Source of the DNA: a virus
Taxonomy: Duplodnaviria > Caudoviricetes
Reading direction: 5' to 3' (one strand)
Length of the DNA stretch: 64,000 nucleotides
Virus record (IMG/VR): IMGVR_UViG_3300022899_000001
Coordinates: 13,731-77,730 of that record
Positions 13,639 to 39,400 of this stretch are shown piece by piece (within the stretch, counting starts at the first letter, position 1; each line of letters starts with the position of its first letter). A program made the translations under genes and the position numbers. The notes under the pieces are model-generated. The model made no database searches. It was not told the origin of the DNA and saw nothing but the letters and a program-made list of their open reading frames with translations.

Positions 13639-15186
13639 ATGATTCAAAACGGCGTTTGGCGCCCTGACTTGTTTCCACGTCAATTCGACCTGTTGCGCGA
13701 GTGCCGCAAGCGCGATGGGATGCGGAAGTTCATTCTCGCCAGTGGTCCGCGCTGGTCAGCCAAAAGCCGGGCGTGCTGGGAAGCAATCGTTGACCACGCT
13801 TGGAACGTCAAACACGCCTCGATTTGCATTCTGGCCAAGTCCATCACGTCTGGCAGCAGTTCCGGACATTGGAACATGATAACCGAGCAGATTGTCCCCG
13901 AATGGATTGCCGGCGACTTCGGATTCAACTGGGCGCCAATGGGCATAGGCCGGTGGAAGAACGAGTTGGCCACGCCACGGCAGGACGGCACGACCAAGAA
14001 ACTGTTTTGCCGAGTCCGCAACAAGTTTGGCGGCAGTTCACGTCTGGAATTAAACTCCCTGATGGACGAGCGTGACGTGGAAGGCTTCTTCAAAGACCGC
14101 TACTTCTCTATGATTTACTGGCCGGAGCTTTCCGAGTACGAAGATTTCAAGACGTTTGACACGTTGAAGCACGCCTTGCGCTGTCCTGGTGTAGCGGAGG
14201 AAGATCATGTGTTGCTGGCCGACACCAACCCGTCCAACAAGAAGCATTTCGCTTACAAGGAATGGTACGAGCTTCGGACGGCTGACCCGGAGGATTTACC
14301 AGAGGAACAGCGACCGCGCCAGAAGCACCTTCGCCTTCTCGAATTCACGCTCGACGACAATCTTTCCCTGAGCGAACAGCGTAAGAAAGATATTCTGGCG
14401 GATTTCTCCTACGATCCGCAGGTTCTTGCGCGATACGGTTACGGTCGGTGGACGGATGCGGACACGGGCGGTTTGTTCACAGGCACATTCCTGCCAGCCA
14501 TTCACATTGTCGGCGACGAACACGATCCTGACACCGAGATTTTAATTCCACAGGATGGGTGTTCGGAATTGCTGTGCGGTTGGGACATCGGCGGAACGAA
14601 TAGCGCAATGGCGATGGCTGAGCAGATTTATCCCGGCGATCCTGGCGTGCCAGAATCATCCGTCTTCAAATTCATTGACGAGGAAGTTGTCATTGGTGAA
14701 CGGCTATCTGTCGCGGAGTTCACTGAGCTTGCGCTGGAAAAAATAAATCTATGGGAAGCGTGGATTGGTAAGCCTGTAATGTGGGTTCATTGGAGCGACC
14801 GCAGCGCGTTCGACCGATGGGAGCCAATCTCCAAGACGTATCACCATCAGGAAGTGTATGCTGCCAGTGGTGGGAAAATCATTCTGCAAAGCGTTCATCA
14901 AGGCCGCGAGAGTGTCGCGCAACGAGTTCGCCTGTGGAAGAAGTTGTTGTTTCAGCAACGGCTCTTGTTCTCTGCGGCGAGATGTCCGAAGCTGATTGAG
15001 ATGAACAGGCTTATCAAATGCGGGAAACATCCCTATTCTATAAGCAGCCAGAGTGAGTACAAGCACATCTTCGACGCCGCGAGTTACTTGGTCATACGCC
15101 AGTGTTGGACCGAATTGGAAAACCTTGTGTCAGGCATCAACACTGCCGATAGTGGCGATGCGCGATTGGTTTCGGTTAGGCTATGA
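13639..15186 (+). CDS. terL: Terminase large subunit
   Basis: ILASGPRWSAKS (Walker A-like), MIYWPELSE (Walker B position), LADTNP (motif III/coupling), C-terminal RNase H-like GWDIGG...HIFDAASY. Confidence 0.85.
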   Translation: MIQNGVWRPDLFPRQFDLLRECRKRDGMRKFILASGPRWSAKSRACWEAIVDHAWNVKHASICILAKSITSGSSSGHWNMITEQIVPEWIAGDFGFNWAPMGIGRWKNELATPRQDGTTKKLFCRVRNKFGGSSRLELNSLMDERDVEGFFKDRYFSMIYWPELSEYEDFKTFDTLKHALRCPGVAEEDHVLLADTNPSNKKHFAYKEWYELRTADPEDLPEEQRPRQKHLRLLEFTLDDNLSLSEQRKKDILADFSYDPQVLARYGYGRWTDADTGGLFTGTFLPAIHIVGDEHDPDTEILIPQDGCSELLCGWDIGGTNSAMAMAEQIYPGDPGVPESSVFKFIDEEVVIGERLSVAEFTELALEKINLWEAWIGKPVMWVHWSDRSAFDRWEPISKTYHHQEVYAASGGKIILQSVHQGRESVAQRVRLWKKLLFQQRLLFSAARCPKLIEMNRLIKCGKHPYSISSQSEYKHIFDAASYLVIRQCWTELENLVSGINTADSGDARLVSVRL

Positions 15187-21351: not shown

Positions 21352-21411
21352 GCGCAACATCCCGTGCAGCGTATGCCTACCCCGATACGGCTATCGGTTG
21401 TTTTGTTCTGC
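21352..21411 (+). other. Degenerate attC-like site
   Basis: GCGCAAC-ATCCC-GTGCAGCGTATGCC...GGCTATCGGTTG-TTTT-GTTCTGC. The left arm matches the array consensus; the right arm is eroded. Confidence 0.45.
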
Positions 21412-21430
21412 CGGGTCACGGCGGGGAAAG

Positions 21431-21854: not shown

Positions 21855-22078
21855 TCGATTGATCTGAACCACACCCGGAACTCGTCCAGTGTTTTGAATC
21901 CGTCTATGGCAACCATGCCTTCGGTCGTGTTGATGCCAAGGCGCTCAAGCCAGAGTTGGACTCGACCAAGTTCCATAGGCTTCGGTCTGCGAATCCAGAT
22001 GCCCGTGTCCTGATGGTACGCACCGCGATAGTCGCGGATGGCGTTGGACAGCTTTCTGAGTTTATCGGTTCGGCTCAT
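21851..22078 (-). CDS. Small hypothetical protein
   Basis: 75 aa, ATGA-coupled on both sides. Confidence 0.6.
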   Translation of the reverse strand: MSRTDKLRKLSNAIRDYRGAYHQDTGIWIRRPKPMELGRVQLWLERLGINTTEGMVAIDGFKTLDEFRVWFRSIE

Positions 22079-23289
22079 ATAATCTCGATTCTTTTTCCGG
22101 GTATTAAAAACTTCCCGCCCGCATCCAGATAGTTCTGATTCTTGCTAATGATTTCGTCCTTGAAATTGCCACTGAAGATAATCGCATAATCCGGCTTCTG
22201 CTTCATCAGTTCTGATTCCGGCACAATCGGGATGGAAGTCCCCGGACTGAACTTCCCCTGCTTGTTCGGCGTGCAATCGCAGATGAATTTGATCTCGTTG
22301 TGAGTGAATCCGCAGGCCGAAATCCAGACGGTTGATTTCGCAGATGCGCCAAAACCAGCAATCGTCTTACCCGTTCGTTTGGCCGATCTCAGGCCAAGCA
22401 AGTCCTCTACTTTGAATCGCAGATGATTGATTGCGGCGTGAGCATCGTTGCTGAATGTCTGCCATGATTGTTCGGTGATGTTCTCAGACGGAATTGAGTC
22501 AGGGTATTTCTCGCAGTCATTTCTCCTGAGAAGGAAAACGATTGAGCCTCCCATGATGTCAAAATTCCGAACCGCGTGAAGGTGGAACACCGTGCCTTTC
22601 AGGAGATGCTCGATGGATGAGATTGAGACGTAGGACAAATGTTCGTGGTATGCCGTCTCCCATTGGACTTTACTGAGCATGTCAACCAAGGACGGCACCT
22701 CAATGGCGATAAGTGTGTCCTTTCTTGCGATCACCCCAAGGTTATTGATGAACTCGCTCCAATCATTCACATGCGCGAATACATGGCGGGCAATAATGAC
22801 ATTAGGTATTGGCACAACGCCACCGACGATGTTCGCGCTGTAAGAATCGAACAGGCCAACAATCGTGGTGATGCCATCCTTCGTCGCGAGTTCTGCAAGG
22901 TTGCCAGCCGGGTCAACGCCGCACACTCGTTCTGCGCCATTCGCCAGAGCGAACTTCAAAAATGCGCCCGTGTTGCTGCCAATCTCAATCACCGATTCCA
23001 CTGGCGATTTCTGTTTGATGAACGCCCACAGCGACTCGAAATGAGCGAGCATGGTTGCGCTCTCAGAAGTTCGGTAACTGTATCCAGAATATAAAATCTC
23101 CGGTGAGACAACCTCGCGAAGTTGCGCCAATTGACAACGCTCGCACCAAAGCAGCGTCAATGGAACGTAGCCATCTTGTTCTTCGCCTTCGGCCTTGAAT
23201 GAGTTGGCGAGAGGCATGGGCGGCAGAGAGAATACTTCGCGCAATGATGGATTTCCGCAAGCGCGACAGGTTGTTCGGATCGAGAAAAT
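22075..23289 (-). CDS. NDP-hexose C-methyltransferase-like protein (Zn-binding N-terminus, class I SAM domain, C-terminal domain)
   Basis: TTCRACG...MPLANSF...LTLLWCERCQLAQL, VIEIGSNTG, ARHVFAHV, YHEHLSY, IAGFGASAKS, DCTPNKQGKFSPGTSIPI. The CRAC motif lies upstream of the track start (23244); in-frame ATT at 23289. Confidence 0.85.
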   Translation of the reverse strand: MFSIRTTCRACGNPSLREVFSLPPMPLANSFKAEGEEQDGYVPLTLLWCERCQLAQLREVVSPEILYSGYSYRTSESATMLAHFESLWAFIKQKSPVESVIEIGSNTGAFLKFALANGAERVCGVDPAGNLAELATKDGITTIVGLFDSYSANIVGGVVPIPNVIIARHVFAHVNDWSEFINNLGVIARKDTLIAIEVPSLVDMLSKVQWETAYHEHLSYVSISSIEHLLKGTVFHLHAVRNFDIMGGSIVFLLRRNDCEKYPDSIPSENITEQSWQTFSNDAHAAINHLRFKVEDLLGLRSAKRTGKTIAGFGASAKSTVWISACGFTHNEIKFICDCTPNKQGKFSPGTSIPIVPESELMKQKPDYAIIFSGNFKDEIISKNQNYLDAGGKFLIPGKRIEII

Positions 23290-23290
23290 A

Positions 23291-23764
23291 TCAGCCTCCT
23301 GTGTTGATTGTAAGTCTCGCCATCTCGCGCAATATCACTTCGGCGACCGCAGGTACTATGGCGTTTCCGAGTCCTTTAAGGCGGTGTGTCCGATTGGGTA
23401 TCCCATCAGCCACTCGACCCAATTCGGGTTCAGGCTGCCACTGTGCCCACCCATTACAGAAGGTTGGGTGGATGCGTTCAACACAGGCAAGAGTCTGTGG
23501 CCAGAGCCAGCGGTGATCTTCCGAGCCTCTTTGGTGCCCGGCGCAAGAAGCGGGCTGGCAAGGAGGTCCACCTGTGATGAGATCAGCGTTGAGTTGTGGC
23601 ACGTTTCGGATGTCTCCGTAGTTGGGCACGTTGGGCCAGTGTCGCTTGAGGATTTTGCACGCATAAGGTTCAATTTCAGAAAATCCGATGGTTGTAAATC
23701 CTGCTGCTTGTGCGGCGATTGTGAAGCCGCCAATGCCGCTAAAAAGATCAAGGTGAGTCAGCAT
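23291..23764 (-). pseudogene. C5-cytosine DNA methyltransferase (alpha frame) with large in-frame internal deletion
   Basis: Motif I LDLFSGIGG, motif IV GGPPCQP and motif X LGNAIVP are present; the ENV (VI) and VIII motifs are absent; only 157 aa. Confidence 0.7.
23356..23751 (-). CDS. Alternative-frame (beta-type) polypeptide nested in the C5 methyltransferase gene
   Basis: Open for 131 codons and carries LNPNWVEWLMGYPIGHT, a motif IX-like segment missing from the alpha frame. Confidence 0.55.
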   Translation of the reverse strand: MIFLAALAASQSPHKQQDLQPSDFLKLNLMRAKSSSDTGPTCPTTETSETCHNSTLISSQVDLLASPLLAPGTKEARKITAGSGHRLLPVLNASTQPSVMGGHSGSLNPNWVEWLMGYPIGHTALKDSETP

Positions 23765-23767
23765 ATC

Positions 23768-24394
23768 CTACCTCGGCATCGTCAACCCCCGCTCCCCATC
23801 CGCCGCCCTGGTGAGTTTGGAAACAATTTCAGACCACGGTCTGCCTTCGCAACGGACACGCTTAATAAGGTCCGCGTTTACGCTGCCTGGAAAGCACCAC
23901 CAATCCTCAGTCTCGCCATAGTCAGGAATCACAACGTCGGCGCAGGCCAGATCGTAACCGTATTCCTTCATCGCCAATCGCATTCTGTCACGCGGCTCAT
24001 CACCAATCCTGTAACGATCATGCTCAATAGTCGCAACACTGAATCGTAATGTTCCAAACGGTATGTTACTGAACGTGTCGAGTGTCGCATCGTCACAGTC
24101 CAAACTCAAAAAGTCAATTATTCGAGGCAGACCAGCCTCATCAATTACCGCGAGCCAGTCCGTTTTGGTTGTGTCGCCCTGAATAAACTTGCTGGTGCGA
24201 TTCTGAATCCGATCTGCGTCACACAGAATGTCGAACAATAAACCGCTCCAACCCATTTGCTCAAGAGCGTATGTGTTGTTCATCGAGGTCAGGTTATACG
24301 AACCAACATCCAGAAATGTGCCATCAGTTCTCTGCCCGCACATTTCAAATGCGAATACATCCTGTCCCGCCTGTGATGTGGATTGAAGAATCAT
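23768..24394 (-). CDS. FkbM-like class I SAM methyltransferase
   Basis: SQAGQDVF...GTFLDVGS...NNTYALEQMGWSGLLFD...IDFLSLDCD. Confidence 0.75.
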   Translation of the reverse strand: MILQSTSQAGQDVFAFEMCGQRTDGTFLDVGSYNLTSMNNTYALEQMGWSGLLFDILCDADRIQNRTSKFIQGDTTKTDWLAVIDEAGLPRIIDFLSLDCDDATLDTFSNIPFGTLRFSVATIEHDRYRIGDEPRDRMRLAMKEYGYDLACADVVIPDYGETEDWWCFPGSVNADLIKRVRCEGRPWSEIVSKLTRAADGERGLTMPR

Positions 24395-25179
24395 GCACGA
24401 CTTCTTCGAGACGACGCATCATACATCGCCTGAGCCTTCTTCAAATCACGCGGCCCGTTTTCAATCTCGTGCATCTGGTGAAAGTATAAGTATTCTTCAA
24501 TTATGTGAAACTTCACTCCCGCCCGCTGCATGGCTCCCTGAAGATCAAGCTGCCAATAGCCCCATTCCAAAAGTTCTTCATCGTAAAAATCCGCTGCCGC
24601 CATTGCTTGTTTCGTCGTGATAAAACTGGCCGCATCATACAAGGCGCTCGTGTGCCAGCCCGCGCCTTCCGAGTTCTTCAGGAGGTTTTTTGGGTTTTCC
24701 CTCCAATTCAAACCTTCCAAATCAGAAGCGTGGTCAACTGCTTCGTGTGGTTTTCCTTTTTGCGACCAATAGGGCATCTGCATCAACCAGCTTGCAACAA
24801 ACCACATAGGGTCAGCGCCATCGTTAGACTGCTTGGAAAACTCACCGACCAGCCTCTCGCAGTAATCCACATCGTAAATACAATCTGCTTTTGCCAAAAT
24901 AAACACGTCATGCTTGGCCATTCTGATAGCTGTATTCTGGCACCAAGAAGCTGTTGTCTTGGCCGGATCACCGTGTTTATTAAACGAGAACCGAAGCTTG
25001 TCCACGTCGAAATGCTTGGCTATGACCCTTTTGATTTCACTCTCTGAATAATCAGTGTTGTTCTCGAAGAACAGCCAGCAATCAGGGGAGATGGTTTGCT
25101 TGGACAATGAGTAGAGGCTTCGCTCAAGATGGTCAAGCGTCAGACTTCTAAAGAATGTGAAAATCAAACTCCAAGTCAT
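24391..25179 (-). CDS. GT-A fold (GT2-like) glycosyltransferase
   Basis: N-terminal SLIFTFF...LERSLYSLSKQT; FILAKADCIYD (DxD-like); WGYWQLDLQ...HQMH. Confidence 0.65.
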   Translation of the reverse strand: MTWSLIFTFFRSLTLDHLERSLYSLSKQTISPDCWLFFENNTDYSESEIKRVIAKHFDVDKLRFSFNKHGDPAKTTASWCQNTAIRMAKHDVFILAKADCIYDVDYCERLVGEFSKQSNDGADPMWFVASWLMQMPYWSQKGKPHEAVDHASDLEGLNWRENPKNLLKNSEGAGWHTSALYDAASFITTKQAMAAADFYDEELLEWGYWQLDLQGAMQRAGVKFHIIEEYLYFHQMHEIENGPRDLKKAQAMYDASSRRSRA

Positions 25180-25925
25180 ATTTCTGCCCCTTTTCTCTTG
25201 TTGAATTGCTGTTTGAAATACGGATCAGTCAACGTGTCGGCGAAACCTGAAAGCACGCGCTTGGTTTTCATGTCTGCTTTTGAAAAATCTTCTGTCGGCC
25301 TCCAAAACGCGAGACAATTTGACTGGTCGCCGCGCCAGAAGCAATTTGGTGCCCTGCGCCATTCGCGCCATTGATACTCACCACTCCATAGCACCAGCTT
25401 GACTGGAAGCTTTTCCCGCGCAACCAAAACCCACAAACTGTTAGGGCCATGCTCGAATGCGTATCGGTCAGACTTGCTACTGACGCCGAATGGATAACGT
25501 CGCAAAATGTGTGGCGGGCAAAAGAATCCACTCGTGTTAAGATGTGGGCGAATCTGATAGCTGGCGCAGGTCCCGTAAAGACCTGGAGCTTCGGCGAACA
25601 CCTTGGCCATGCGCGAGAGCCAGCCGGGTTTGTTGAAATAAGCTGACGCACCAAAACACAAGATCATGTCGGCGTCACATTGCTTGGAATAATCCAAATA
25701 ACCACCGATGTCCCAGCCGTCGTTTGTGCGAGTGAAGAAACTACAATCTGCAATCTGGCTGAATTGTGCCTTCTGCCGGCTGTCCGGCTCCCGGCCATTA
25801 CAGATGATAACAGTTGAATGGTGTTCACCGGGCGGATGCGAAAGGTAGGAACTGATAAAACGCGAGTGCGCGGACTGAAACTGCGCAAGATGAGGAACCA
25901 TGATGTAGGCGAGCATGATCTTCAT
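25176..25925 (-). CDS. Putative glycosyltransferase-like protein
   Basis: FFTRTNDGWDIGGY...ILCFGASAYF...HLNTSGFF...YAFEHG; lies within the GT cluster. Confidence 0.5.
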   Translation of the reverse strand: MKIMLAYIMVPHLAQFQSAHSRFISSYLSHPPGEHHSTVIICNGREPDSRQKAQFSQIADCSFFTRTNDGWDIGGYLDYSKQCDADMILCFGASAYFNKPGWLSRMAKVFAEAPGLYGTCASYQIRPHLNTSGFFCPPHILRRYPFGVSSKSDRYAFEHGPNSLWVLVAREKLPVKLVLWSGEYQWREWRRAPNCFWRGDQSNCLAFWRPTEDFSKADMKTKRVLSGFADTLTDPYFKQQFNKRKGAEI

Positions 25926-26596
25926 GCAGGCACTCGCCTTCCAAAGTACATCGGAAATCTCCTAGCCACTTCATGGAAATTGCGCTGCTCAATCGCATTG
26001 ATGCCGGGCATCTTCGAGCTTGTGGCCTTGCCGATGTGGGTCACGCGGCAGTCTGGAGTAACGTGAAGGGTGTAGCCTTTTTCTATCAGACGAAGACCAA
26101 GGTCTATCTCCTCCCAGTAACAAAACTTCAAGTAATCACTGAACAATCCAACCTCTTTCAACAATTCCGTTCGCCCCATCATGCAATGTCCCCATAGATA
26201 TTCGATTGCGGATTTATCAGGGTTGAGGCTTTTTCGGAAATGACCACCCACCGGCGAGGACAACGCGCACATCTGAAACTCCTTGAACGGACGCTCCAAA
26301 GCCTCAAGCCAGCCAGAATCAACAGTCGTGTCGTCATTGAGGTAAATCACAAAATGCGAAGTTATCTTGGTCAATGCAACTCGTGATGGATTGATGAATC
26401 CCTCGTTCTTTTGATTTATTACCACCGTGACGTTGGGATGATCGCGAGCCAGGCCAAGGAAATAATTCCCAACTACCGGATTACCGTTGCTGGTCAGGCA
26501 TAATTCAAAGTCGGAACTGTGTGCAAATACGGACTCCAGGCATCTCTTACAGTGATCCAGAGCCGTGTATGTCGTTATACAGATGCCGTAACGCAT
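25922..26596 (-). CDS. GT2 family glycosyltransferase
   Basis: ICITTY...CLESV...NEGF...IYLNDDTTV...EEIDLGLRL..KGY. Confidence 0.85.
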   Translation of the reverse strand: MRYGICITTYTALDHCKRCLESVFAHSSDFELCLTSNGNPVVGNYFLGLARDHPNVTVVINQKNEGFINPSRVALTKITSHFVIYLNDDTTVDSGWLEALERPFKEFQMCALSSPVGGHFRKSLNPDKSAIEYLWGHCMMGRTELLKEVGLFSDYLKFCYWEEIDLGLRLIEKGYTLHVTPDCRVTHIGKATSSKMPGINAIEQRNFHEVARRFPMYFGRRVPA

Positions 26597-26953
26597 TTAC
26601 GGTTTCTCTCCCTTCGCCAGCCGAATCATGCTCTTTTGTTGTTCCGGCTTCAGCAGTTGTTTCACGCTCACACCCTTGGTCAGACGGCGATAACGCCTGC
26701 GCGGATCACGCGCCAACAGGTTCACACCGCACGCCTCGGCAAAGTCGCTCACCGTCTTTAGGAGCAATGGCCATTCACGGCGATAGGCCAACGCCTGCAA
26801 CGTGCGCCGCTTGATCCCGCTGCGTTGCACCAGATCGTTGATTGTCCTGTGTTGAACGCCGCGCTTCCGGTCGCGCCTGACAGCCATCGCAAGACAGACG
26901 AAAGGCGGCGTGCGTTGCACGGTTTGCCAGAGGGTTAGGGGTTTGCGATTCAC
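26597..26953 (-). CDS. Basic, putative HTH DNA-binding protein
   Basis: TINDLVQRSGIKRRTLQALAY; 118 aa. Confidence 0.5.
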   Translation of the reverse strand: MNRKPLTLWQTVQRTPPFVCLAMAVRRDRKRGVQHRTINDLVQRSGIKRRTLQALAYRREWPLLLKTVSDFAEACGVNLLARDPRRRYRRLTKGVSVKQLLKPEQQKSMIRLAKGEKP

Positions 26954-26963
26954 GTTTTCAATA

Positions 26964-26993
26964 TGCTAACCCGTCGCATAATCACTGTTAGCA
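26964..26993 (+). other. attI-like site 1
   Basis: AATCACT-GTTAGCA opens array 1 without an attC left arm; 9/10 identical to the site beside the integrase remnant. Confidence 0.55.
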
Positions 26994-27223
26994 GGCTCTC
27001 CGTTTTTGGCGTCGTAGTATTTGTCCCACGCTTTCGAGGTCTGGTCGCACAGGTCATCGTATGCCAGTTGAGCATCTTGAGCTTGCTGTCGTGCTTCGTT
27101 TCGTAGTGATTGGAGTTTTTTGCAGTTCGCAAGTAGCCTGCTAACAAGCTCACTGGAGCGAACCGGCTTGGGCTGCTTCAGTGAGGTTATCAGGGCGTAG
27201 TTGGACGGTTTGATTCGGCTCAT
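26966..27223 (-). CDS. Cassette ORF, small coiled hypothetical protein
   Basis: 85 aa; ATG inside attC 27139-27271; ends ANSDYATG across the attI-like site. Confidence 0.6.
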   Translation of the reverse strand: MSRIKPSNYALITSLKQPKPVRSSELVSRLLANCKKLQSLRNEARQQAQDAQLAYDDLCDQTSKAWDKYYDAKNGEPANSDYATG

Positions 27224-27271
27224 AGGTCTTGTTGCATTTCGCCAGCGGGTCGCTCAGTTCGGTCGTTAGGC
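27139..27271 (+). other. attC-type site (133 bp)
   Basis: TGCTAAC-AAGCTC-ACTGGAGCGAACCGGC ... GCGGGTCGCTCAGT-TCGGTC-GTTAGGC. Confidence 0.85.
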
Positions 27272-27272
27272 G

Positions 27273-27881
27273 TCATAGGAACGCGCCTTGCAAGTTCGGA
27301 CGCTTTCGTTCCGCAAGGCATATTGTGTCGTTGTGGGCCGCGCCGTGGCAGACGAGCATCACTTCGAGGATGTCGCAGCCGTGCTTCTGCCCCATTCCGG
27401 CGCTGTTCCATCCGAAGCTCAGGACGATGGCATCGTCGGTCAGCACTTCGGCCATTGCGTTTTTTACGCGAGAGTAGAGCGCGGCGTTTTGCGTTTCCTT
27501 CATGCCGCACTTGATTCCGGCTTCCTGGTAGCACTCGCTGATTTGGCGCGGCGAGTATGGCGGGTCGAGGATTGCGAGGTCGCACCGGATTCCTTTGCCC
27601 GCGAGCATCCGCAGAAAGTCCTCGGCATCCATGTGATATTCCGCCTCTGTCTTTGGGTTCAGGTCGTTGGTGTAGGTTGCCCATCGTTTGTTGCGTGCGA
27701 ACGGGTCGCACGAGATTTTCGCGGCTTTGAGATAGCGTTGCACCATGTCACCTATTGGCCGGACGCTGAAGGTGTCAGCAGACGGCATTGCCCACACGCG
27801 GGAGAATGACGCCGAACCATACGGTGCAGCGAATGCCGCCATCGCATCTCCGGCGAGTTCGTGAGTCTCAGTGGGCGGCAT
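27273..27881 (-). CDS. Cassette ORF: small adenine-type DNA methyltransferase-like protein
   Basis: ISCDPFARN...LAILDPPYSPRQISECY; true start may be a few codons downstream. Confidence 0.7.
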   Translation of the reverse strand: MPPTETHELAGDAMAAFAAPYGSASFSRVWAMPSADTFSVRPIGDMVQRYLKAAKISCDPFARNKRWATYTNDLNPKTEAEYHMDAEDFLRMLAGKGIRCDLAILDPPYSPRQISECYQEAGIKCGMKETQNAALYSRVKNAMAEVLTDDAIVLSFGWNSAGMGQKHGCDILEVMLVCHGAAHNDTICLAERKRPNLQGAFL

Positions 27882-27904
27882 CGCTGACCTTATCGTCGTT
27901 GGGC
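27811..27904 (+). other. attC-type site (94 bp)
   Basis: GCCGAAC-CATAC-GGTGCAGCGAATGCCGCC ... GGCGGCATCGCTGACC-TTATCGTC-GTTGGGC; the arms differ only by the extra G and A. Confidence 0.9.
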
Positions 27905-28131
27905 CGACGCCAGTGGGTAGCGATCTTATCTACCTTTGCCCACTTTGGCCGATACATTGGCCGGCCATCGTAGAATCTCAGAACGGTTTGGACACTGCCC
28001 CACCACACTTCACCGCTCACGAGTTTAGTGCCAATTTGTATTCGGTCGCCCGGCCCAACCACCGGATGCTGCGAACGTGCGGTTCGCTTTCGGCATCCGG
28101 CTTTGGGAGAAATTGGACGTTTATTTTTCAT
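27868..28131 (-). CDS. Cassette ORF, small basic hypothetical protein
   Basis: 87 aa; starts in attC 28053-28160 and ends PNDDKVSDAAH in attC 27811-27904. Confidence 0.55.
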   Translation of the reverse strand: MKNKRPISPKAGCRKRTARSQHPVVGPGDRIQIGTKLVSGEVWWGSVQTVLRFYDGRPMYRPKWAKVDKIATHWRRPNDDKVSDAAH

Positions 28132-28160
28132 CGGCAGGTCGCTGATCCGGGACGTTCCCC
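28053..28160 (+). other. attC-type site (108 bp)
   Basis: GCCCAAC-CACC-GGATGCTGCGAAC ... GGTCGCTGATCC-GGGAC-GTTCCCC. Confidence 0.85.
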
Positions 28161-28885
28161 ACCTTGAGCACGCGCAGGATTTGCCGTGCGAGATATTCCG
28201 CGAAGGCCGGTGGTATGGCTTGCGCGATTTCTTTTCGAGTCGCCCACGGCATCTGCATGATTTCGCGGGCTTCTTCGAGTCCCTTTGGCTTGCGTCCGAG
28301 TCCGCCAGTTTTCTTTTTACGAGGCGCGTGTTGGAAGCTGCCAGTTCCGCTCACGTCTATCGGGTCAGGTTGTGCGGCGTGGTTGCATTCCGGCGCAGTC
28401 AGCAGGACGTTGCTCTCGAAGATGCGATGCCGGCGCACCCGAAGCCCGAAGGACGAGCCACAGAGCATCACCGGATTTTGCAGCGGCGCACCGACCACGT
28501 TTTCGATGATGTAGAGTCCTCCCCACGCCTTGAGCTTTTCGCGTGTGCGTTCGATGTAGCACTCGTATTCTTTGCCGGTCACATGCTTTAGAGTTGTGTG
28601 CGCCTGGCACGGCGGCGAGGCCCACACGAAATCGAAGCCGGACAGGTCAGCATCCAGCGCATTTCCGATGTGACGCTTGAAGGGATAGTTCAGGCCGCTC
28701 TTGATGTCCCATCCTTCCACCTCGAATCCGGCGTTGTGGATTCCCATGCCCGCACCGCCGGCGCAGCAGAATAAGTCAGCACATCGCGGGGCAGGTGGGG
28801 AACAAGACGCTGCACGCAAAGATGCCCCGCTTCGCAGTTCGAGCGGTTGCATCTTCGGCGGCGCGTCTGTCAGTTCGATAGTCAT
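28121..28885 (-). CDS. Cassette ORF: C5-cytosine DNA methyltransferase (short phage type)
   Basis: DLFCCAGG (I), WASPPCQ (IV), IIENV (VI), RRHRIFE (VIII), IAQAIPPAF (X). Confidence 0.85.
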   Translation of the reverse strand: MTIELTDAPPKMQPLELRSGASLRAASCSPPAPRCADLFCCAGGAGMGIHNAGFEVEGWDIKSGLNYPFKRHIGNALDADLSGFDFVWASPPCQAHTTLKHVTGKEYECYIERTREKLKAWGGLYIIENVVGAPLQNPVMLCGSSFGLRVRRHRIFESNVLLTAPECNHAAQPDPIDVSGTGSFQHAPRKKKTGGLGRKPKGLEEAREIMQMPWATRKEIAQAIPPAFAEYLARQILRVLKVGNVPDQRPADEK

Positions 28886-28931
28886 TTGGCGTTATTGAGG
28901 CGGGGCATCTTGCGTGAGCTTTTCGTTGGGC
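28797..28931 (+). other. attC-type site (135 bp)
   Basis: GGGGAAC-AAGAC-GCTGCACGCAAAGATGCCCCGC ... GCGGGGCATCTTGCGTGAGC-TTTTC-GTTGGGC. Confidence 0.9.
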
Positions 28932-29596
28932 CACTTAGCGCACGTCGCTGCCAGTTCGAGCAGATAGTGCGCGAACGCGGGAGGCGTGGCGTTTGCCTCA
29001 CGCTTTGAGAGTGTCGGTTTATTGGCGGCCTTGCCGCGCTGGTCGTGGAAGCCGACTTGATGCGTCCCGATTGGTCGCGCCCATCGAGGGTGTAGCGGAG
29101 ATTGAGTGCCTGAGCAGTAGAGCCATGTTCGTTTGTTCGCTCGATGCCCGTAGGCCGATTGCCAGACTTCGCACACCCATCCTTGCTTCCATCGCGTCCA
29201 TCCGATTCCAGGATACGGCAGCCCGTGCGCCGTCCATGCGTAGGTTTCCGCAGGATGTTCGAGCACGCCGCCGCAGCGGTTCACAGTGTCGAGCGCAAAT
29301 TGGAAGCAGCCGCCATCATTGCCGGGTCGGTTGTGTTCTCCGCCCCACCGCAGATGATTTATCACCGCCATCTTGCCCCACAGTTGGCAGGGAGGATGAG
29401 CGACCACGGGATTGTTGCCCGCGTAGGTCAGCGCGTTTCGTTCGGCGTCGTAGCAGTCACAGCCGAGCGACTTGTAGAGAGAGTCTTTCATCACGAAAAG
29501 CACAGTGACGTGGCCCAACCAATCAGTGCAGCGAACAGCCGCCCCGCTCTCCGGTTCGGCGTTCACTGGAATTAGAATGTCGGCGGTGTCGTTCAC
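28892..29596 (-). CDS. Cassette ORF: divergent C5 DNA methyltransferase-like phage protein
   Basis: VVAHPPCQLW (PC motif), GGVLEHP, HRANKRTWLY, ANATPPAFA. Confidence 0.6.
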   Translation of the reverse strand: MNDTADILIPVNAEPESGAAVRCTDWLGHVTVLFVMKDSLYKSLGCDCYDAERNALTYAGNNPVVAHPPCQLWGKMAVINHLRWGGEHNRPGNDGGCFQFALDTVNRCGGVLEHPAETYAWTAHGLPYPGIGWTRWKQGWVCEVWQSAYGHRANKRTWLYCSGTQSPLHPRWARPIGTHQVGFHDQRGKAANKPTLSKREANATPPAFAHYLLELAATCAKWPNEKLTQDAPPQ

Positions 29597-29635
29597 GGTT
29601 TCTCTCGGAGGCTGTCGCTGACTTCTGCGTTCTAC
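29513..29635 (+). other. attC-type site (123 bp)
   Basis: GCCCAAC-CAATC-AGTGCAGCGAACAGCC ... GGCTGTCGCTGACT-TCTGC-GTTCTAC. Confidence 0.9.
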
Positions 29636-29922
29636 GGCACCGGCATGACGCCTTTGCTTTTAAGAAAACGGCGGTTGATCTCTTTCGGCCAGTCAGCGGG
29701 CCAGTCGGTTGGGTCGCCTTTGGAGTCCATCAGCACCCACCCTTCGGCATCCCGATACGCAGAGGCCGGTGACGTAGAACCAGCCGGATGCAGCGAACCG
29801 GGCTTCGCCGGTTCGCCATCACGCTTTTTTGAACGGCGCTGCTTTGCCTTCTGTTCACGCAGCCAGTTTCTTGTTGCCGAGTCCTCCGGCCACACTCTTG
29901 GTTTCGCCATGCCCATTGCCAT
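29632..29922 (-). CDS. Cassette ORF, small hypothetical protein
   Basis: 96 aa; starts inside attC 29774-29973; its TAG is part of the next site's R' box. Confidence 0.55.
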   Translation of the reverse strand: MAMGMAKPRVWPEDSATRNWLREQKAKQRRSKKRDGEPAKPGSLHPAGSTSPASAYRDAEGWVLMDSKGDPTDWPADWPKEINRRFLKSKGVMPVP

Positions 29923-29973
29923 ATTCAGATTTCTTTCTTGTTTTCGCCCGGTCGCTGATCCGGGACGTTCTCT
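29774..29973 (+). other. attC-type site (200 bp)
   Basis: GTAGAAC-CAGCC-GGATGCAGCGAACCGGGC ... GCCCGGTCGCTGATCC-GGGAC-GTTCTCT; 21 bp (29950-29970) identical to 28137-28157. Confidence 0.9.
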
Positions 29974-30245
29974 GTCGGCTGTCGCTTACTCTCGTGCCCC
30001 ATCTGCCGGCGGAAGCGGCCTTTGTAGTGCATCGGCACGCCTCCAAAGTGGTTGATAATATAGACGGTGTTTTCGTCCACTGATTTCCATTTGCACGGAT
30101 GCGAGTAGTGGTAGAATTGGTCACCTTTTCGGATTCGCTCCTTGAGTCTCAGCACACGAAATTGGCTAACCACGCGCTGAAGACGACTGCGAGAGCGTCG
30201 GGTAGCACTGGCCGTCTTTCCGCGTTGGAGCTTTTTTGTTTTCAT
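29925..30245 (-). CDS. Cassette-like ORF, small basic hypothetical protein
   Basis: 106 aa; ends ENVPDQRPGENKKEI inside an attC. Confidence 0.55.
   Translation of the reverse strand: MKTKKLQRGKTASATRRSRSRLQRVVSQFRVLRLKERIRKGDQFYHYSHPCKWKSVDENTVYIINHFGGVPMHYKGRFRRQMGHESKRQPTENVPDQRPGENKKEI
30164..30190 (+). other. attC left half-site
   Basis: GGCTAAC-CACGC-GCTGAAGACGACTG with no convincing right arm. Confidence 0.45.
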
Positions 30246-30637
30246 CGCCGCTGCGCCTTGTAGTGTTCCAATATCTTGTCATACTCCGCATCGCCCACTG
30301 GAATGACCTGTCCTTTGAACGGTTCTGGCATATCCTCGCCGCTGAACCATGCGAACCGAGTCCCTTCCACAGTAGTAATGGCGCACCAACCCAAGTCCAA
30401 GTTCTTCTGGCACGTCGGGCAATACGGCTTGTGCTTTGGCTCGACTATCTTCGCTTCGACTCGCTTGGCAAACGGAGCGCCATATCTCTTTCCGCACAAC
30501 GCGCAGGGTATCGCAGCGGATGGCAGCTTGCCGTTGCGCTTGGCCCGATTCTCCATCATGCGGTCGCCATACTGCTTCTTTAACGAAGGCAGCAGCGCGG
30601 AGAGACGCTTCAGTCGGTCGAGGAAGTTGTCGCTCAT
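30242..30637 (-). CDS. Hypothetical protein with two CxxC motifs
   Basis: PCALCG...YCPTCQ; 131 aa. Confidence 0.6.
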   Translation of the reverse strand: MSDNFLDRLKRLSALLPSLKKQYGDRMMENRAKRNGKLPSAAIPCALCGKRYGAPFAKRVEAKIVEPKHKPYCPTCQKNLDLGWCAITTVEGTRFAWFSGEDMPEPFKGQVIPVGDAEYDKILEHYKAQRR

Positions 30638-30642
30638 AACAA

Positions 30643-31182
30643 TCAGCCATCTAGCGGGCTTTTGATGCGCCGCTCGACCGGAGCGGCGACATGAATGTGC
30701 TTTGCATGTCCCGGAAGTGACCCGAATTCACCATGAAGAAGGCGTGATGCGAAAGCATACGCGACGGCAGCGTCCCTCTCGGTATCGAAATGGCCTATTG
30801 GAATCATTTTGTAGTTATACCTAATTCGCGCTCTGAATTTATTCTTGTCCTTTGAGACTCCGCGCACCCCGTATTTGCCCCATGCCAAGTGAAGATTTCG
30901 GCTGTTTTCTCCTTGGGTGCATAGCCTTAAATTCTCCCGGCGATTGTCCAGCCCGTCTCCATTGATGTGGTCAACTTGCTTGTGTGATGATCCATTTATG
31001 CCAAGCATGAATCGGTGCATGGTGACTTCGATCCGCTTTCCGTTTACCGTCGGTCGCCGTGCAGCATAAAGCAGCTTTCCGCCATGACATTGTTTCAAAC
31101 TCCATTTGAACTTTGACAACTTATCGAAGTCCGAATCATCAACGATGGCGTGTTTTCCAGCACTAAGAGGGATTGTTTTCAT
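30643..31182 (-). CDS. HNH homing endonuclease with AP2 DNA-binding domain
   Basis: MHRFML...VDHINGDGLDNRRENLR...N; GVRGVS...FRARIRYN...IGHFDTERDAAVAY. Confidence 0.9.
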   Translation of the reverse strand: MKTIPLSAGKHAIVDDSDFDKLSKFKWSLKQCHGGKLLYAARRPTVNGKRIEVTMHRFMLGINGSSHKQVDHINGDGLDNRRENLRLCTQGENSRNLHLAWGKYGVRGVSKDKNKFRARIRYNYKMIPIGHFDTERDAAVAYAFASRLLHGEFGSLPGHAKHIHVAAPVERRIKSPLDG

Positions 31183-31353
31183 TTAGTTGCTAGTGTGCCG
31201 CAGCGTGTGACATGCTGTCAAACTGTAATCGAGCAAACGCTTGACGTAACAATCCACCGTGCGCGGCGAGTAATGCTTGGTGACCAGCCAGCGGCGGAAC
31301 ACCTCACGTGGCTTGAGTGAATCAGCTTTACGCGGTTCAATTACGGCTGTCAT
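31183..31353 (-). pseudogene. intI: Integron-integrase (tyrosine recombinase) remnant, 56 aa
   Basis: My translation: MTAVIEPRKADSLKPREVFRRWLVTKHYSPRTVDCYVKRLLDYSLTACHTLRHTSN*. It joins an IntI-type N-terminal HYSxRTxxxY helix directly to the box II CHTLRH motif. Confidence 0.75.
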
Positions 31354-31643
31354 GGCTTTGAGTCGTTGGAATAACTGTTCTGACGCTTGGAATCAGCAGC
31401 TTCAATCTCTTTTGAGAAGGCGACCATTGCGTTGACCACCTCAGTCTTGTGGGCAAGTGGCACTTCAGGTTGGTAGCACAGAAGGTCTGTTATTTCCTTC
31501 ATCCACGCTTCAAGCCTCTGGACGGCAGGTCGCGTCAGAACCATGCGGTGCAGCGAATGAGCTTCCGCCTGTTCCGCTTCTCGCAGGCTTCGCTCTGTAG
31601 CGCAGTCTAGGCACAGACAATCTTCTTCGTGTTTATCGCTCAT
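31350..31643 (-). CDS. Cassette ORF (first of array 2), hypothetical protein
   Basis: ATG at 31643 lies in the L' arm of the attC; ends QNSYSNDSKP; its TGA overlaps the intI ATG. Confidence 0.6.
   Translation of the reverse strand: MSDKHEEDCLCLDCATERSLREAEQAEAHSLHRMVLTRPAVQRLEAWMKEITDLLCYQPEVPLAHKTEVVNAMVAFSKEIEAADSKRQNSYSNDSKP
31365..31383 (+). other. attI-like site 2
   Basis: AATAACT-GTTCTGA, about 24 bp upstream of the intI ATG and on the opposite strand, as in canonical integrons. Confidence 0.65.
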
Positions 31644-31664
31644 CGCTGACCTTTTTCGTTCTAC
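31535..31664 (+). other. attC-type site (130 bp)
   Basis: TCAGAAC-CATGC-GGTGCAGCGAATGAGC ... GCTCATCGCTGACC-TTTTTC-GTTCTAC. Confidence 0.9.
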
Positions 31665-31915
31665 AGCACCCGCTCGCTGTGTTTTATTTCGACGCATCTG
31701 ATTTCGGGGGGCACTAGCAAGTCCCTAAAGAACCATCTGGCATATTCCAGCGCCTGTGATTTGTTGTCCCGCTGGCCGGGGATCCGTTCCCATTTGGCCT
31801 TCTTTGTTTTCCATTCGACCGCGTATGCTGTAGAACCACGGCATGGAGCAGAACTGCCCTTGCGCTTTGCAGTTTTCAAGCGTGCTGGTTTGCGGGAGTT
31901 GGTTTTCGTTTTCAT
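31661..31915 (-). CDS. Cassette ORF, small basic hypothetical protein
   Basis: 84 aa, bounded by attC sites. Confidence 0.55.
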   Translation of the reverse strand: MKTKTNSRKPARLKTAKRKGSSAPCRGSTAYAVEWKTKKAKWERIPGQRDNKSQALEYARWFFRDLLVPPEIRCVEIKHSERVL

Positions 31916-31960
31916 ATTTTCGGGCTGTCGGCGGGCAGTCGCTCATCGCCGACGTTCTGC
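31830..31960 (+). other. attC-type site (131 bp)
   Basis: GTAGAAC-CACGGCATGGAGCAGAACTGCCC ... GGGCAGTCGCTCATCGCCGAC-GTTCTGC. Confidence 0.8.
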
Positions 31961-32274
31961 CGCCTGCGTTTCAGTCCTTCGAGCCGCTTCTGGAGAGCCG
32001 TTAGGTCGCGCTCCGATTCAGCGATTGCCTTGGCGAAGGCTTCGTCCCGCGTCTCGAAAAGATGATGTCCTTCCGCGCCGGAGAATCCGACTTCTGGACA
32101 CCACCACATTGTTGGGTTGCTTGGAGCGCATGAGTAGCCAGTGACTTCGCGCACGTCACCATCTGCCACGGCCCACCATTGGCGTTTCTCGCGTTCGACT
32201 GCGGCAGAACCACCGGGTCGAGCTAACCCGGCGGGCCGATCTGGTTGTTGGATGTTGGTTTGCATGGATTTCAC
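31912..32274 (-). CDS. Cassette ORF, hypothetical protein
   Basis: 120 aa; ends QNVGDERLPADSPKI inside an attC. Confidence 0.6.
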   Translation of the reverse strand: MKSMQTNIQQPDRPAGLARPGGSAAVEREKRQWWAVADGDVREVTGYSCAPSNPTMWWCPEVGFSGAEGHHLFETRDEAFAKAIAESERDLTALQKRLEGLKRRRQNVGDERLPADSPKI

Positions 32275-32316
32275 GTTTGGGTTTTCGCGCCGGGTAGCTC
32301 ACCCGGAGCGTTCTGC
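32204..32316 (+). other. attC-type site (113 bp)
   Basis: GCAGAAC-CACC-GGGTCGAGCTAACCCGGCG ... CGCCGGGTAGCTCACCC-GGAGC-GTTCTGC. Confidence 0.9.
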
Positions 32317-32579
32317 CAATGTTCCTCGCATCGAACCTTGGCCTCTTTGACCGTGGCGTAATCACCGATAGTCCAGGATCGTCTATAGGCCGTTCCAGAG
32401 GAGACGTGCGCTTGGACTTTGGCTCTGTATTGCGTCACGAAATAGCGAAACCCAGCCGACGCAGCCCACGTCCACATATTTACTCCATTCGCCTGACTGT
32501 AATGCCAAATGGCAGAACCAACCGGATGGAGCAGACCCGGTTGGGCGTATTGAGTTTTTTCTTGAGGTTCAGGTTTCAT
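32271..32579 (-). CDS. Cassette ORF, hypothetical protein
   Basis: 102 aa; ends QNAPGELPGAKTQT inside an attC. Confidence 0.6.
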   Translation of the reverse strand: MKPEPQEKTQYAQPGLLHPVGSAIWHYSQANGVNMWTWAASAGFRYFVTQYRAKVQAHVSSGTAYRRSWTIGDYATVKEAKVRCEEHWQNAPGELPGAKTQT

Positions 32580-32619
32580 AAAGTCTCAGTTCCGGGGCTG
32601 CTCATCCGGGACGTTAGCC
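32512..32619 (+). other. attC-type site (108 bp)
   Basis: GCAGAAC-CAACC-GGATGGAGCAGACCCGG ... CCGGGGCTGCTCATCC-GGGAC-GTTAGCC. Confidence 0.9.
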
Positions 32620-32778
32620 AGCATTGAACGATGCGCACACCACACATTGTTTCGCGCCTTCCGTCGCCTCACCAAGATACTCCGCTTTTACCTGTTCGAC
32701 CGATGAGCACCACGCCGAGTATTTATCTCGCCACCCTTGGTGTGGTCCTTCGTTATTCGCTGGCCGCATTCTGCACAT
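32614..32778 (-). CDS. Possible 54-aa cassette ORF
   Basis: MCRMRPANNEG...QCVVCASFNAG*; the stop TAA lies in the R' box. Confidence 0.35.
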   Translation of the reverse strand: MCRMRPANNEGPHQGWRDKYSAWCSSVEQVKAEYLGEATEGAKQCVVCASFNAG

Positions 32779-32797
32779 CTCATAGTTAGTTGTTTTT

Positions 32798-32828
32798 CAT
32801 CGGTGCTGCTTTAACTCAGTCGTTCTGC
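32798..32828 (+). other. attC right half-site
   Basis: CATCGGTGCTGCTTTAACT-CAGTC-GTTCTGC; a 49-aa ORF (32816-32965, minus) ends QND* across it. Confidence 0.4.
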
Positions 32829-33088
32829 GTCTTCGCCTCGTCCAGTTGCGGAGCGCGGCATTGTGGGCCGCACGACAGGTCTTCGATGACCTGTTCCGTG
32901 GCTTCCTCTGGCAGTTCGTCCAGAAAGATTCTCACGCCTTTGTAGCGCACGAGGCGCACGCTCATCGCTCAGCTTGGTCGTAAGATTCAAAACCAATGCT
33001 CCGCCCGCTACAGTCACTCTGGTGAGGAATGATGGTCTTGCGACCAACGGAGCACTGGAAACTTGATCGTGACTGTAGCATGGAGGAG

Positions 33089-36489: not shown

Positions 36490-39400
36490 ATGCCTTTCTC
36501 GGATACCGATGAACTGGTTTACGACACACCGAAGTCCTCTTTCTCGGAATCCGACGCACCTGTAGAACCACCTCCGCAAGCAATTCCTGCTGACAATCAA
36601 GGCGGCTACCTTACCGAAGTCGCACGCGGCCTGACGCAGTTTGTTCCTGCGGCAATCAAAACGATTTCCACTGTTGGTGAACGTCAAAAGTTTACTCCAT
36701 TCGGTCCAACTGCCCGCGAAGTTGCTGACTACGCCTTGCGGAAGGTTGGTGTTGAACCCGCGCCCGGAGAACTTCCTGAGACTCGTCCAATCTACAAGAT
36801 TGGCCAGCGTGTCGAGGATGTTTTGAACCAAGCCTACCCCGCTGTGCCTGAACCAGAGCGCAATCTTGGACACGACGTTGCAGCCGGACTTGGCCAGATG
36901 GCTTCCATGTTGGCAGGCGGTGTTGGAGCGCGGGCCGCTGGCGCAACCGCTAAAGGCGCGGCAGGTATCGCAACATTGCTTGGCGGTGTTCAAGAGTTCG
37001 ATGATGCTTTTGGCCGCTCACGACAGCGCGGCGATGATCCTGACACCGCGTTTGCCAAGTCACTTGGCTATTCCACCGTCGCGGCTTTGATCGAAAACCA
37101 TCTTGGTGCCGGACGCATTCTCAAGAAGTATTTCCCTGATCCTGCCGAAGCCGCCCGCAAGCTGAGTGCGTGGGGAGTCAGTAAAGCTGTGGCTGGCTCA
37201 CTCGCTGTCGGTTTTGGCGAGGAAGGCTCACAACGATTCGCGCAGAACTGGATTGTCGAAGGCAAGCCGTCATTGGAAGGTGTCGTTCAGGAAGGCGCAC
37301 CGGGCGGCATAGTTCAGGCGATAGCGGAACTGCCAGCGACTTTGTTGAGAACAAAAGGCGGTCGAGTGCGCCGTCCAACACAAGCACAACCTACGGAGGA
37401 AACAGATGCCACAAGAACTGGAATCCCAATTGAAGCGCCGGGCACGCAAGCTCCACCTGTCGAAGAAGCGGACAGGGGCATACGTGTACGGGACACTGCG
37501 CAAAACCGGATGGGAGCCCCAGCCATCCTCGCACCGCCGCAAGCAGAAGCGCCTGTCGTCGCGACGACGCCGGTAGCGCCGCTGGCTCTGCCTTCCGTCG
37601 GGGAATCAATTGAACATCCTGTCGTTGGCCAGAAGTTTATAGTTCCACGCCAACTGCGGCTGGCAGATGCTCCGGTTGATACCGAAGTGACCGTGGAGAG
37701 CGTGAAGCGTGGCCCTGACACAAGAGGGGGTAGTCAGACTATCGAAGTTAGATTTTCAGACGGAAATACCAGTGGGAGAAACGCCGGCCAACAATCCGAC
37801 GGAACATTTGTTCCTGTTGATGACATCGTTAATCAGATTCTTTCCGAGCGGAAAGCCAGACCATCTCCTGCGCCGGTCGCCCCTGCGGTTGTTCCGCCAG
37901 TCGTCCTACCCAAGATCGCCCCCGTCGTTTTCAAATCACTCGACCCGATGAATCCGTCCATCGGCTGGTTTGAATTGACCGAGCCGTTCACAGCGCCAGA
38001 AACAGGACGCACGACGGCAGCAGGCGGACGGCTCAACTCGAATCAAATCGAACAATACGGCATGTCGCTGGAAGGGCCTGCTAAGGCAGCGTTCGAGGAA
38101 GCGAAGAAACGAACTTCAGTTAGCAATGCACCCAAGGAACCGAGTGTGGCGGCGGGAGACCAACTAACACCCGTTAGTGAGGGAACAACTCCCGCCGCTG
38201 CTCCTGTAAATGTTCCAACCCCAATCGCAAATGTTCCAACCCCTGCGCCCGTTGCAGCGAAGCCTGCCGAGACTCTCCCGCAAGGGAAAGCTTGGTCTGT
38301 GCCTTGGGCTGATGGTCGGGCGCGTGCATGGTTTAAGACGAAAGAAGCAGCAGACGAATTCTATCGCCAGAAACTTTCAGAGAACGATGTTGATGGTCCT
38401 CCAGAAATTGGTGAACCAACCAAAGGAGTTAAATATGCCGACGAAAAGTATCAAATTCCGAAGGCTGCCAAGGGCTCAAGTGAATCGAATATTAAAGCAG
38501 ACGATTTGGCTGGAGTATTGGGAGAGGGTGCAGGAGGCGGCGCGGCCAGAACTGAAGGCCCTATTGCGATCTCACCAACTACGCCCACGGTGTGGAAGGT
38601 AAGCTATACAGATTTGGAAACCCGTGCTGCCAAGCGCCCATTCTTCAAGCATGTCGTCTATTCAGAAGGTGCGACTCGTCAGGAAGCCATAGACAGAGTT
38701 AAATCTTATCACGGAAATCTTTCAAAGTGGGGAGAGTTTAGAGCCTCAAAAGCTGAAGGTAAAAAGGCTGATTCGTTCTTCCGTGCTCCAGTTGAAGAAA
38801 CCCCCGGCCCAGCGAGCGATGTTTCACCGAAACAGAGCGCCCAAGCTGAGGCGGGACAGTCAATCGTTCAAACTCCAAGTGTTGCGCCGGTTGAGCAGAC
38901 AGTCAAGCTCGTGGCTGATGTTGGGGATGAAGTTACATTCACGCCTTCTGCAAAGAAGGGATTGGCTGTTTCTGGAATCGTTCAGGAAATTGTGAACGGT
39001 GGGCGTGGCTACAACATTCTTTCGCCGCTTCCGAATGATCCAAACCGCGTTGTTCGCGTTTGGCTTGAAGATGGAAGGGTTGAGAAGAAAGCTGCGCCTG
39101 ATACTGCGTCCTTGTTGACGGTTGATGTTCCATTCACCGATGATGCCCGCCGCCGAATAAAAGCTGTTGACCTTCAGCAAGCGCAGTTGCGTGGCGAATA
39201 CCAAAAGATTCAGGACGAGATAAAGTCACTCGAAAAGACCATCAAGCCTCAACGTGGTAATGCTTACTCACGGAGTAAGATCAAGGCGAGCGCAAAACGA
39301 TTAGATGTAGAGCGTTTCCATGCGCTCCAGAAGCAGGCTCGAACGATTGACGAGCAGCTTCATGCTTTGGACGAATCGGCACGAGTGGACAGAAGGCTGA

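Follow-up and report, generated by a model that had tools for sequence, protein, structure and literature searches.

A complete phage genome carries two series of gene units in which the two ends of every unit are complementary to each other, and we read this pairing, with a probability of roughly 0.9 judged from sequence comparison, as the footprint of integron cassettes moving as circles. The stretch that we analysed, here called the window, is 64,000 nucleotides long and corresponds to bases 13731-77730 of the 77,730-bp IMG/VR virus record IMGVR_UViG_3300022899_000001, which is rated complete by CheckV. The region in question very probably consists of two integron cassette arrays on a phage, array 1 (26987-29967) with six cassettes and array 2 (31377-32613) with four; actual excision and insertion of these cassettes we infer. 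The object is a phage-borne integron remnant with inverted, frame-coupled cargo.

Results

Each unit is complementary at its own two ends

An earlier note on this DNA had claimed that the opening R' box and the closing R'' box of ten units pair with each other. Searching for GTT and AAC ends that show 8 bp or more of inward complementarity recovered all the pairs and coordinates that it had given. All ten units pair, GTT start with AAC end, over perfect runs of 8-11 bp; one unit pairs at 11/12 positions, as the note had said (cassette 2, 27265/27817), and one at 13/14. Here and below, units are located by the G of the opening GTT and the C of the closing AAC, and pairing lengths include GTT/AAC. 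The permutation test that we applied counts only bases beyond the invariant GTT/AAC and re-pairs the same ends at random in 200,000 trials. Within units the runs extend 5-8 bases beyond GTT and sum to 62, a value never reached by the re-paired ends (mean 14.4, maximum 53; p < 5e-6), and the total identity of within-unit ends likewise exceeds all 200,000 permutations. Between the AAC of one unit and the next GTT, that is, within the same integrated site, the runs are 0-5 and sum to 13, which bears out the claim that R'' and R' of one integrated attC mostly mismatch. In otherwise perfect pairing, one mismatch recurs at position four of the R stem, where GTTA at the start faces GAAC at R''; it occurs at 27265/27817 and also in the related loci L014, L015, L039 and L042.

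That integron integrases make their strand exchange in R', between its G and TT, is established (restated in PMC5027507 and PMC9892861). Each cassette would comprise a cargo stretch followed by its own attC hairpin on the plus strand; after insertion, the bases that follow the G of this attC would belong to the next cassette, and the cassette's own R' continuation would lie at its own start. The GTT start would complement its own R'' and not the R'' of the same integrated site because the crossover falls at G|TT. Excision as a circle would join the two ends, forming the 9-11 bp base of the attC stem, and if re-insertion is restricted to cassettes that retain the pairing, then pairing would be kept by selection on mobility.

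The segments between the units fold as attC hairpins

The inter-unit segments, with 78-186 nt between the boxes, each fold into a long imperfect hairpin, giving ten sites, 92-199 nt long, with RYYYAAC (R'') at one end and GTTRRRY (R') at the other. They have a common geometry on the plus strand, in which AAC is followed by ~3 unpaired nt, 6 bp, a bulge (G in nine sites, C in one), another 6 bp and a bulged A; in all aligned hairpins there follow more stem, a variable loop and a return arm ending in GTT. Both bulges are on the plus-strand arm that carries AAC, with 6 bp between them (7 in one site), and therefore the minus strand is the attC bottom strand; it reads T-N6-C in nine sites and T-N6-G in one. 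The extrahelical T-N6-G/C pattern of the attC bottom strand has been described (PMC3053210 and PMC5027507), and Larouche and Roy reported that this spacing and first base are typical of well-recombined attC sites, C as the second base being tolerated or preferred by some integrases (PMC3053210).

In an alignment of nine of the sequences, 86% of cells pair, against 73% after shuffling and 24-41% when partners are slid by 1-3 columns. Both sides have changed in 13 of the 21 stem pairs, with a covariation score reached by 0/500 shuffles, and the mean column identity of the aligned sites is 41%, so that structure is kept above sequence. A covariance model built from nine of the ten sites found exactly ten sites in 16 kb, 10/10 on the plus strand, reverse-strand scores being 17 bits or less; it superseded a strict hand-written geometry scan, which detected only 6/10 sites. 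Going by sequence and predicted fold, the inter-unit hairpins are genuine attC sites. Hairpin promoters of N4 type, RNase III sites of T7 type, and repetitive extragenic palindromic (REP) or miniature inverted-repeat transposable element (MITE) repeats were considered and dropped: the sites belong to an attC family found beside true IntI, the terminal sequences differ from unit to unit beyond GTT/AAC, and there are no flanking target-site duplications.

Related arrays adjoin intact integron integrases

The exact 19-nt L' arm motif of the sites is present in four other viral contigs and in 15 genome contigs, 8/15 of the latter labelled Verrucomicrobiota, and the covariance model detects attC arrays in contigs that share it. 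Integrases were recognised by the integron-integrase model TIGR02249 (cut-off 265 bits). At locus L036, from a Verrucomicrobiota metagenome-assembled genome (MAG), the array adjoins a 349-aa protein scoring 464 bits, and in viral contig G004 (locus L015) it adjoins a 331-aa protein scoring 356 bits, the two being 43% identical. Four further viral contigs encode IntI proteins 47-76% identical to that of G004, with 1-13 attC sites upstream, always on the strand opposite intI. IntI is intact in the relatives G004, L038, L039 and L040, and in G004 and L039 the cargo genes, intI and then a ~650-aa gene form one co-directional overlapping string. The end rule holds in these relatives as well: for 44 cassettes of other arrays of the same attC family, viral and bacterial, the mean run is 5.5 within the cassette against 1.4 within the site, and the rule is also kept in bacterial arrays adjoining true IntI.

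Two recombinases were set aside. The tyrosine recombinase at L032, beside attC-like sites, falls short of the IntI cut-off and has an IS91 transposase as its neighbour, and the recombinase at L035 is not IntI by NCBIfam. At L032 (G005:C2:208000-221000) the attC-like sites lie directly upstream of repeated IS1182 and IS91-plus-tyrosine-recombinase units, which suggests that the insertion sequences there target or carry attC sites. Two further loci on MAG contigs, L029 (contig labelled Haliangiales) and L022 (at one end of a Verrucomicrobiae contig of 4.6 Mb), hold arrays that score high in the model and have antisense cargo as in the phages. This DNA may come from a phage or prophage, whether integrated into the bacterial genome or only binned with it.

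Homology between genomes breaks at the GTT

Comparison by tblastn of the window's minus-strand proteins with the related viral loci gave two matches only, and tblastx among 53 cassettes found almost no cargo in common, so the evidence on mobility was drawn from a metagenome search with one cassette protein, that of cassette 5. The search returned 80 loci, in which 72/73 attC matches are antisense to the gene. In the closest 13 contigs, DNA homology to the window (84-88%) begins at 28923-28925, the GTT of cassette 5, and the left flanks are unrelated in all 13. Contigs L045 and L046 have one match in common, 713 nt that enclose a cassette of 704 nt, and their flanks are non-homologous; on the right, L046 continues for only 11 nt, so this junction is weakly documented. 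Ends that pair within the unit, together with homology that breaks at GTT, are what a crossover at G|TT would leave, the exact phosphodiester bond lying beyond the resolution of sequence.

More distant members of the cassette-5 gene family carry at least 8 variants of the end pair, each complementary to its own far end over 8-13 bp. These compensatory end changes across ~600 nt of coding DNA support selection on the pairing, not just a recent origin. The earlier note had attributed the near-perfect matches to recent activity or selection; selection is upheld by these self-complementary end pairs, and recent activity cannot be shown in this genome. The phage's own integrase is dead. Its proposal of attC-closed circles gains support from the attC family beside IntI, from the GTT breakpoints and from the lone GTT at the attI-like motif described below.

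The integrase of the phage is reduced to remnants

No match to the tyrosine-recombinase domain (PF00589) was found across the whole 77.7-kb genome, and a query with the IntI of G004 found two fragments. The intI remnant, a 56-aa open reading frame (ORF) on the minus strand at 31183..31353, aligns to IntI residues 6-43 (44% identity) and then jumps to residues 261-284, so that the N-terminal segment is fused directly to a box II-like CHTLRH motif. The other fragment belongs to an HNH endonuclease gene on the same strand (30643..31182; PF13392 at 1.7e-08), whose last ~37 codons encode the C terminus of an integron integrase: this tail aligns to IntI residues 283-330 from phage G004, with 88% identity over the final 17 residues. 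The catalytic core has thus been replaced by the HNH gene; the loss looks like displacement of the core by a homing-type HNH gene. The phage's own integrase is thus destroyed, and present movement would therefore require an integrase from the host or from a co-infecting phage. Where a complete integron has a functional IntI, recognised by TIGR02249, beside the array, the window has remnants only; its 10 attC sites and intI pseudogene make it a cluster of attC sites lacking integron-integrases (CALIN), a class defined by two or more attC sites with no functional intI near them.

A conserved attI-like motif ending in ACT|GTT, a putative attI, lies ~25 nt upstream of the intI start in five viral integrons. 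The window contains it twice, each time marking the first cassette junction. The junction that opens array 1 (26968..26989, plus strand) has a lone GTT in the motif ...AATCACT|GTT, with no hairpin upstream and no attC to the left, and its motif is the closer of the two to the G004 version. The one that opens array 2 (31354..31379, plus strand; ...AATAACT|GTT) lies 24 nt from the start codon of the intI remnant, with motif and spacing as in viral integrons with intact intI. Arrays that open with a lone GTT at the attI-like motif and close with a whole attC have the layout that a crossover at G|TT predicts. Array 1 (26597-26989 side) opens with its motif yet without an adjacent integrase remnant, a second attI-like site and array lying downstream of intI.

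The earlier note had described a unit starting at 29967 that fails the end-pairing rule. The stretch 29967-31376 does lack an AAC partner and a hairpin, but it is not a failed cassette. It is a degraded integrase platform that separates the final attC of array 1 from the putative attI of array 2 and comprises two small genes together with the HNH gene and the remnant of intI. The small genes (29925..30245 and 30242..30637, minus strand; non-cassette stretch 29968..30642) are without R'' partner, attC or family matches.

Cargo genes are antisense and read through the crossover

PHROG matches were obtained only for minus-strand ORFs, namely two DNA methyltransferases and phrog_12600, and codon log-odds favour the minus strand in 10/10 cassettes. 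Antisense cargo was also found in 29/30 cassettes of the other viral arrays, with PHROG support in L039, making 39/40 in total; in bacterial arrays the cargo is on the usual strand in 13/14 cassettes. Each gene of the window arrays begins 61-142 nt inside its own attC, 7/10 end 21-42 nt inside the neighbouring attC, and the crossover triplet is an in-frame AAC codon in 9/10, so shuffling would preserve both the frames and the start/stop overlaps.

In most homologous pairs the attC interior beside the cargo is not conserved (~35 unlinked, against L045/L046 linked, in one cassette family). These interiors are at background identity beside homologous cargo, so R'' would also act as a homology breakpoint. 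It is possible that the unlinking comes from occasional top-strand recombination or from relaxed homologous exchange in the conserved L arms; the linked pair L045/L046 argues against attC interiors merely diverging faster than third codon positions. Taken at its fullest, the picture would be one of uncultivated phages, probably infecting Verrucomicrobiota, that run their own integron inside a phage operon. Its cassettes would be inside out, with genes read from their own attC loop through the crossover into the attC of the neighbour; any order would yield a translationally coupled operon directed toward intI, and cargo units and attC interiors would assort independently. For this whole picture we put the chances a little below even.

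Alternative explanations

Four observations weigh against reading the end pairing as the footprint of ordinary integron circles. The cargo lies on the attC bottom strand, opposite to canonical cassettes, which have it on the top strand, read from a promoter at the attI end; the unlinking of cargo and attC is not predicted by circles that consist strictly of cargo plus own attC and recombine through the bottom strand only; the GTT-proximal BLAST breakpoints fit a G|TT cut and homologous exchange in the conserved L' arm alike; and the phage genome encodes no functional integrase. The second of these is accommodated by a refinement in which both boxes are crossover points, such that cargo bounded by R' and R'' moves while attC interiors are swapped independently. 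The cause would be integrase activity on the top strand at R'' as well, or crossing over by phage recombinases in the conserved L''/L' arms. The circle stage would remain the source of end complementarity, and a cassette would cease to be a fixed unit of cargo plus attC. Where cargo homologues agree at 84-92% of all DNA positions and at 68-80% of third codon positions, the attC interiors next to them reach 52-65% identity, the level of unrelated interiors (mean 56%, maximum 64%); right-hand homology stops at R'' or no more than 35 nt away in 22 pairwise matches, and low-frequency top-strand recombination at R'' has been reported (PMC5027507). The close pair L045/L046, however, retains the cargo together with its right-hand attC, the attC being 96% identical, and no pair sharing the left-hand attC, which a top-strand mechanism would predict, was found in the one family compared. 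We regard this refinement as a serious but tentative option, with odds well short of even.

The remaining explanations dispense with recombination. Pairing might serve an mRNA or single-stranded DNA structure in place, for processing, termination or translational coupling, with the genes looped out; the hairpins do sit exactly at the gene junctions of a packed operon, the mRNA of which carries the stable bottom-strand fold. Yet the end rule is also found in bacterial arrays of the same attC family that have their genes on the other strand, the sites are tied to integron integrases, a lone GTT stands at the attI-like site, homology between genomes breaks at GTT, and no role of this kind is known for stems that enclose loops as long as 650 nt, all of which makes such a structure very improbable as the cause. 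Nor does the pairing follow by chance from the common GTTRRRY/RYYYAAC consensus. GTT and AAC are indeed common to all sites, and GTTCT or GTTGGGCC to several, but the permutation keeps the set of ends and p still stays below 5e-6, with off-diagonal runs mostly of 0-2; chance is refuted and carries practically no weight.

Layout of the arrays

All cassettes and attC sites are given on the plus strand and all cassette genes on the minus strand; scores are those of the covariance model. In array 1, cassette 1 (26988..27265; GTT/AAC 26987/27145) has an 11-bp pairing between R' at 26987-26997 and R'' at 27135-27145, an attC at 27139-27271 (96 bits) and a gene at 26966..27223, with the coding signal on the minus strand. 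Cassette 2 (27266..27898; 27265/27817) is the one with the 11/12 pairing, R' 27265-27276 with R'' 27806-27817; it has an attC at 27811-27904 (69 bits) and a DNA methyltransferase gene at 27273..27881 (phrog_11619 at 5.8e-34). In cassette 3 (27899..28154; 27898/28059) 9 bp are formed by R' 27898-27906 and R'' 28051-28059, the attC lies at 28053-28160 (75.6 bits) and the gene at 27868..28131. The second DNA methyltransferase gene (28121..28885; phrog_363 at 6.4e-24) is the cargo of cassette 4 (28155..28925; 28154/28803), where R' 28154-28164 and R'' 28793-28803 pair over 11 bp and the attC (28797-28931) is a variant that scores 25.5 bits and was detected only with filters off. Cassette 5 (28926..29629; 28925/29519) pairs over 10 bp, R' 28925-28934 with R'' 29510-29519, and has its attC at 29513-29635 and the phrog_12600 gene at 28892..29596 (1.2e-60). 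Cassette 6, the last of the array (29630..29967; 29629/29780), has 8 perfect bp between R' 29629-29636 and R'' 29773-29780, 13/14 overall, an attC at 29774-29973 (98.5 bits) and a gene at 29632..29922.

Array 2 begins with cassette 7 (31378..31658; 31377/31541), which shows a 10-bp pairing of R' 31377-31386 and R'' 31532-31541, an attC at 31535-31664 (109 bits) and a gene at 31350..31643. Cassette 8 (31659..31954; 31658/31836) pairs over 11 bp (R' 31658-31668, R'' 31826-31836), with an attC at 31830-31960 (94 bits) and a gene at 31661..31915. The ends of cassette 9 (31955..32310; 31954/32210) form 10 bp (R' 31954-31963, R'' 32201-32210); its attC is at 32204-32316 (97 bits) and its gene at 31912..32274. 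Cassette 10 (32311..32613; 32310/32518) closes the array with a 9-bp pairing (R' 32310-32318, R'' 32510-32518), an attC at 32512-32619 (90 bits), to the right of which there is no further attC, and a gene at 32271..32579.

Gene context

Genes of phage type in the window include a large terminase (13639..15186) and tail-fibre-like proteins. From 20619 to 32965 every real gene is on the minus strand, and the genes are packed tightly, overlaps of a few bases being common. Immediately beyond the arrays, the leftward gene string continues at 22075-26596 with a run of glycosyltransferase family 2 genes (24391..25179, 25922..26596 and neighbours). A 118-aa ORF without family match (26597..26953) adjoins array 1, and a 2841-aa ORF at 36490-45015 is without a Pfam match at 1e-4. 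Most cargo genes gave no match in the Pfam search, and an Rfam search of the window gave zero matches.

Discussion

The end-pairing rule itself adds nothing new and is a textbook principle; Hall, Stokes and colleagues reportedly used it in the 1990s to deduce the integron crossover point in the first place. What the pairing shows here, on our reading, is a 10-cassette array in a complete phage genome assembled by integron-type recombination, and relatives of this phage encode the integrase themselves. Phages would then use integrons for shuffling accessory genes, in this case two DNA methyltransferases that probably act against restriction, and an attC family common to phages and to host chromosomal integrons would be a direct two-way route of gene flow. 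The antisense, frame-crossing layout and the apparent unlinking of cargo from attC bear on how cassettes are created and on how strictly recombination is confined to one strand; independent assortment, if true, would make both boxes, and hence both strands, natural crossover points.

Phage-borne attC clusters have been known since 2023. Among 10,705 isolate phage genomes, Qi et al. 2023 found 3 complete integrons, 1 In0 element and 17 CALINs (PMC9892861). The complete integrons were all in temperate phages and apparently host-captured, and CALINs had as few as two attC sites; one prophage carried a complete integron and a second array with its own attI, five phage attC sites recombined with attI1, and methyltransferase cargo was noted (PMC9892861). 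Our arrays resemble those integrons and CALINs in being phage attC clusters, some without integrase, with DNA methyltransferase cargo. They differ in that they come from uncultivated phage contigs where intI is part of a phage operon and an array can reach 13 attC sites, and in that 39/40 cargoes are antisense, the words 'antisense' and 'opposite' being absent from PMC9892861. In a limited literature check of open-access text, no account turned up of phage integrons whose cargo is uniformly antisense and overlaps attC. What is possibly new here is that the cargo is all antisense to attC, that frames cross the crossover, and that cargo and attC interiors appear to assort separately.

With class 1 integrons and the Vibrio cholerae repeat (VCR) arrays, the phage arrays share the R''/R' boxes, the unpaired spacer, extrahelical bases spaced by 6 bp, the variable loop, a single array orientation, the G|TT crossover and a lone GTT, here at the attI-like motif, beside intI. 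In contrast to those systems, the cargo genes all occupy the attC bottom strand and start in their own attC loop, the replicon is a phage, the R stem is 9-11 bp rather than ~7, the second extrahelical base is mostly C and not G, and cargo often seems free of linkage to a particular attC interior. Counterparts are also found in the chromosomal integrons of the Verrucomicrobiota MAGs (L034-L036 and L021), where attC sites of this family (30-65 bits) occur with a true IntI and the cassette ends obey the pairing rule; there, however, the integrase of L036 is co-oriented with the cassettes, whereas the phage intI is divergent from the attC top strand.

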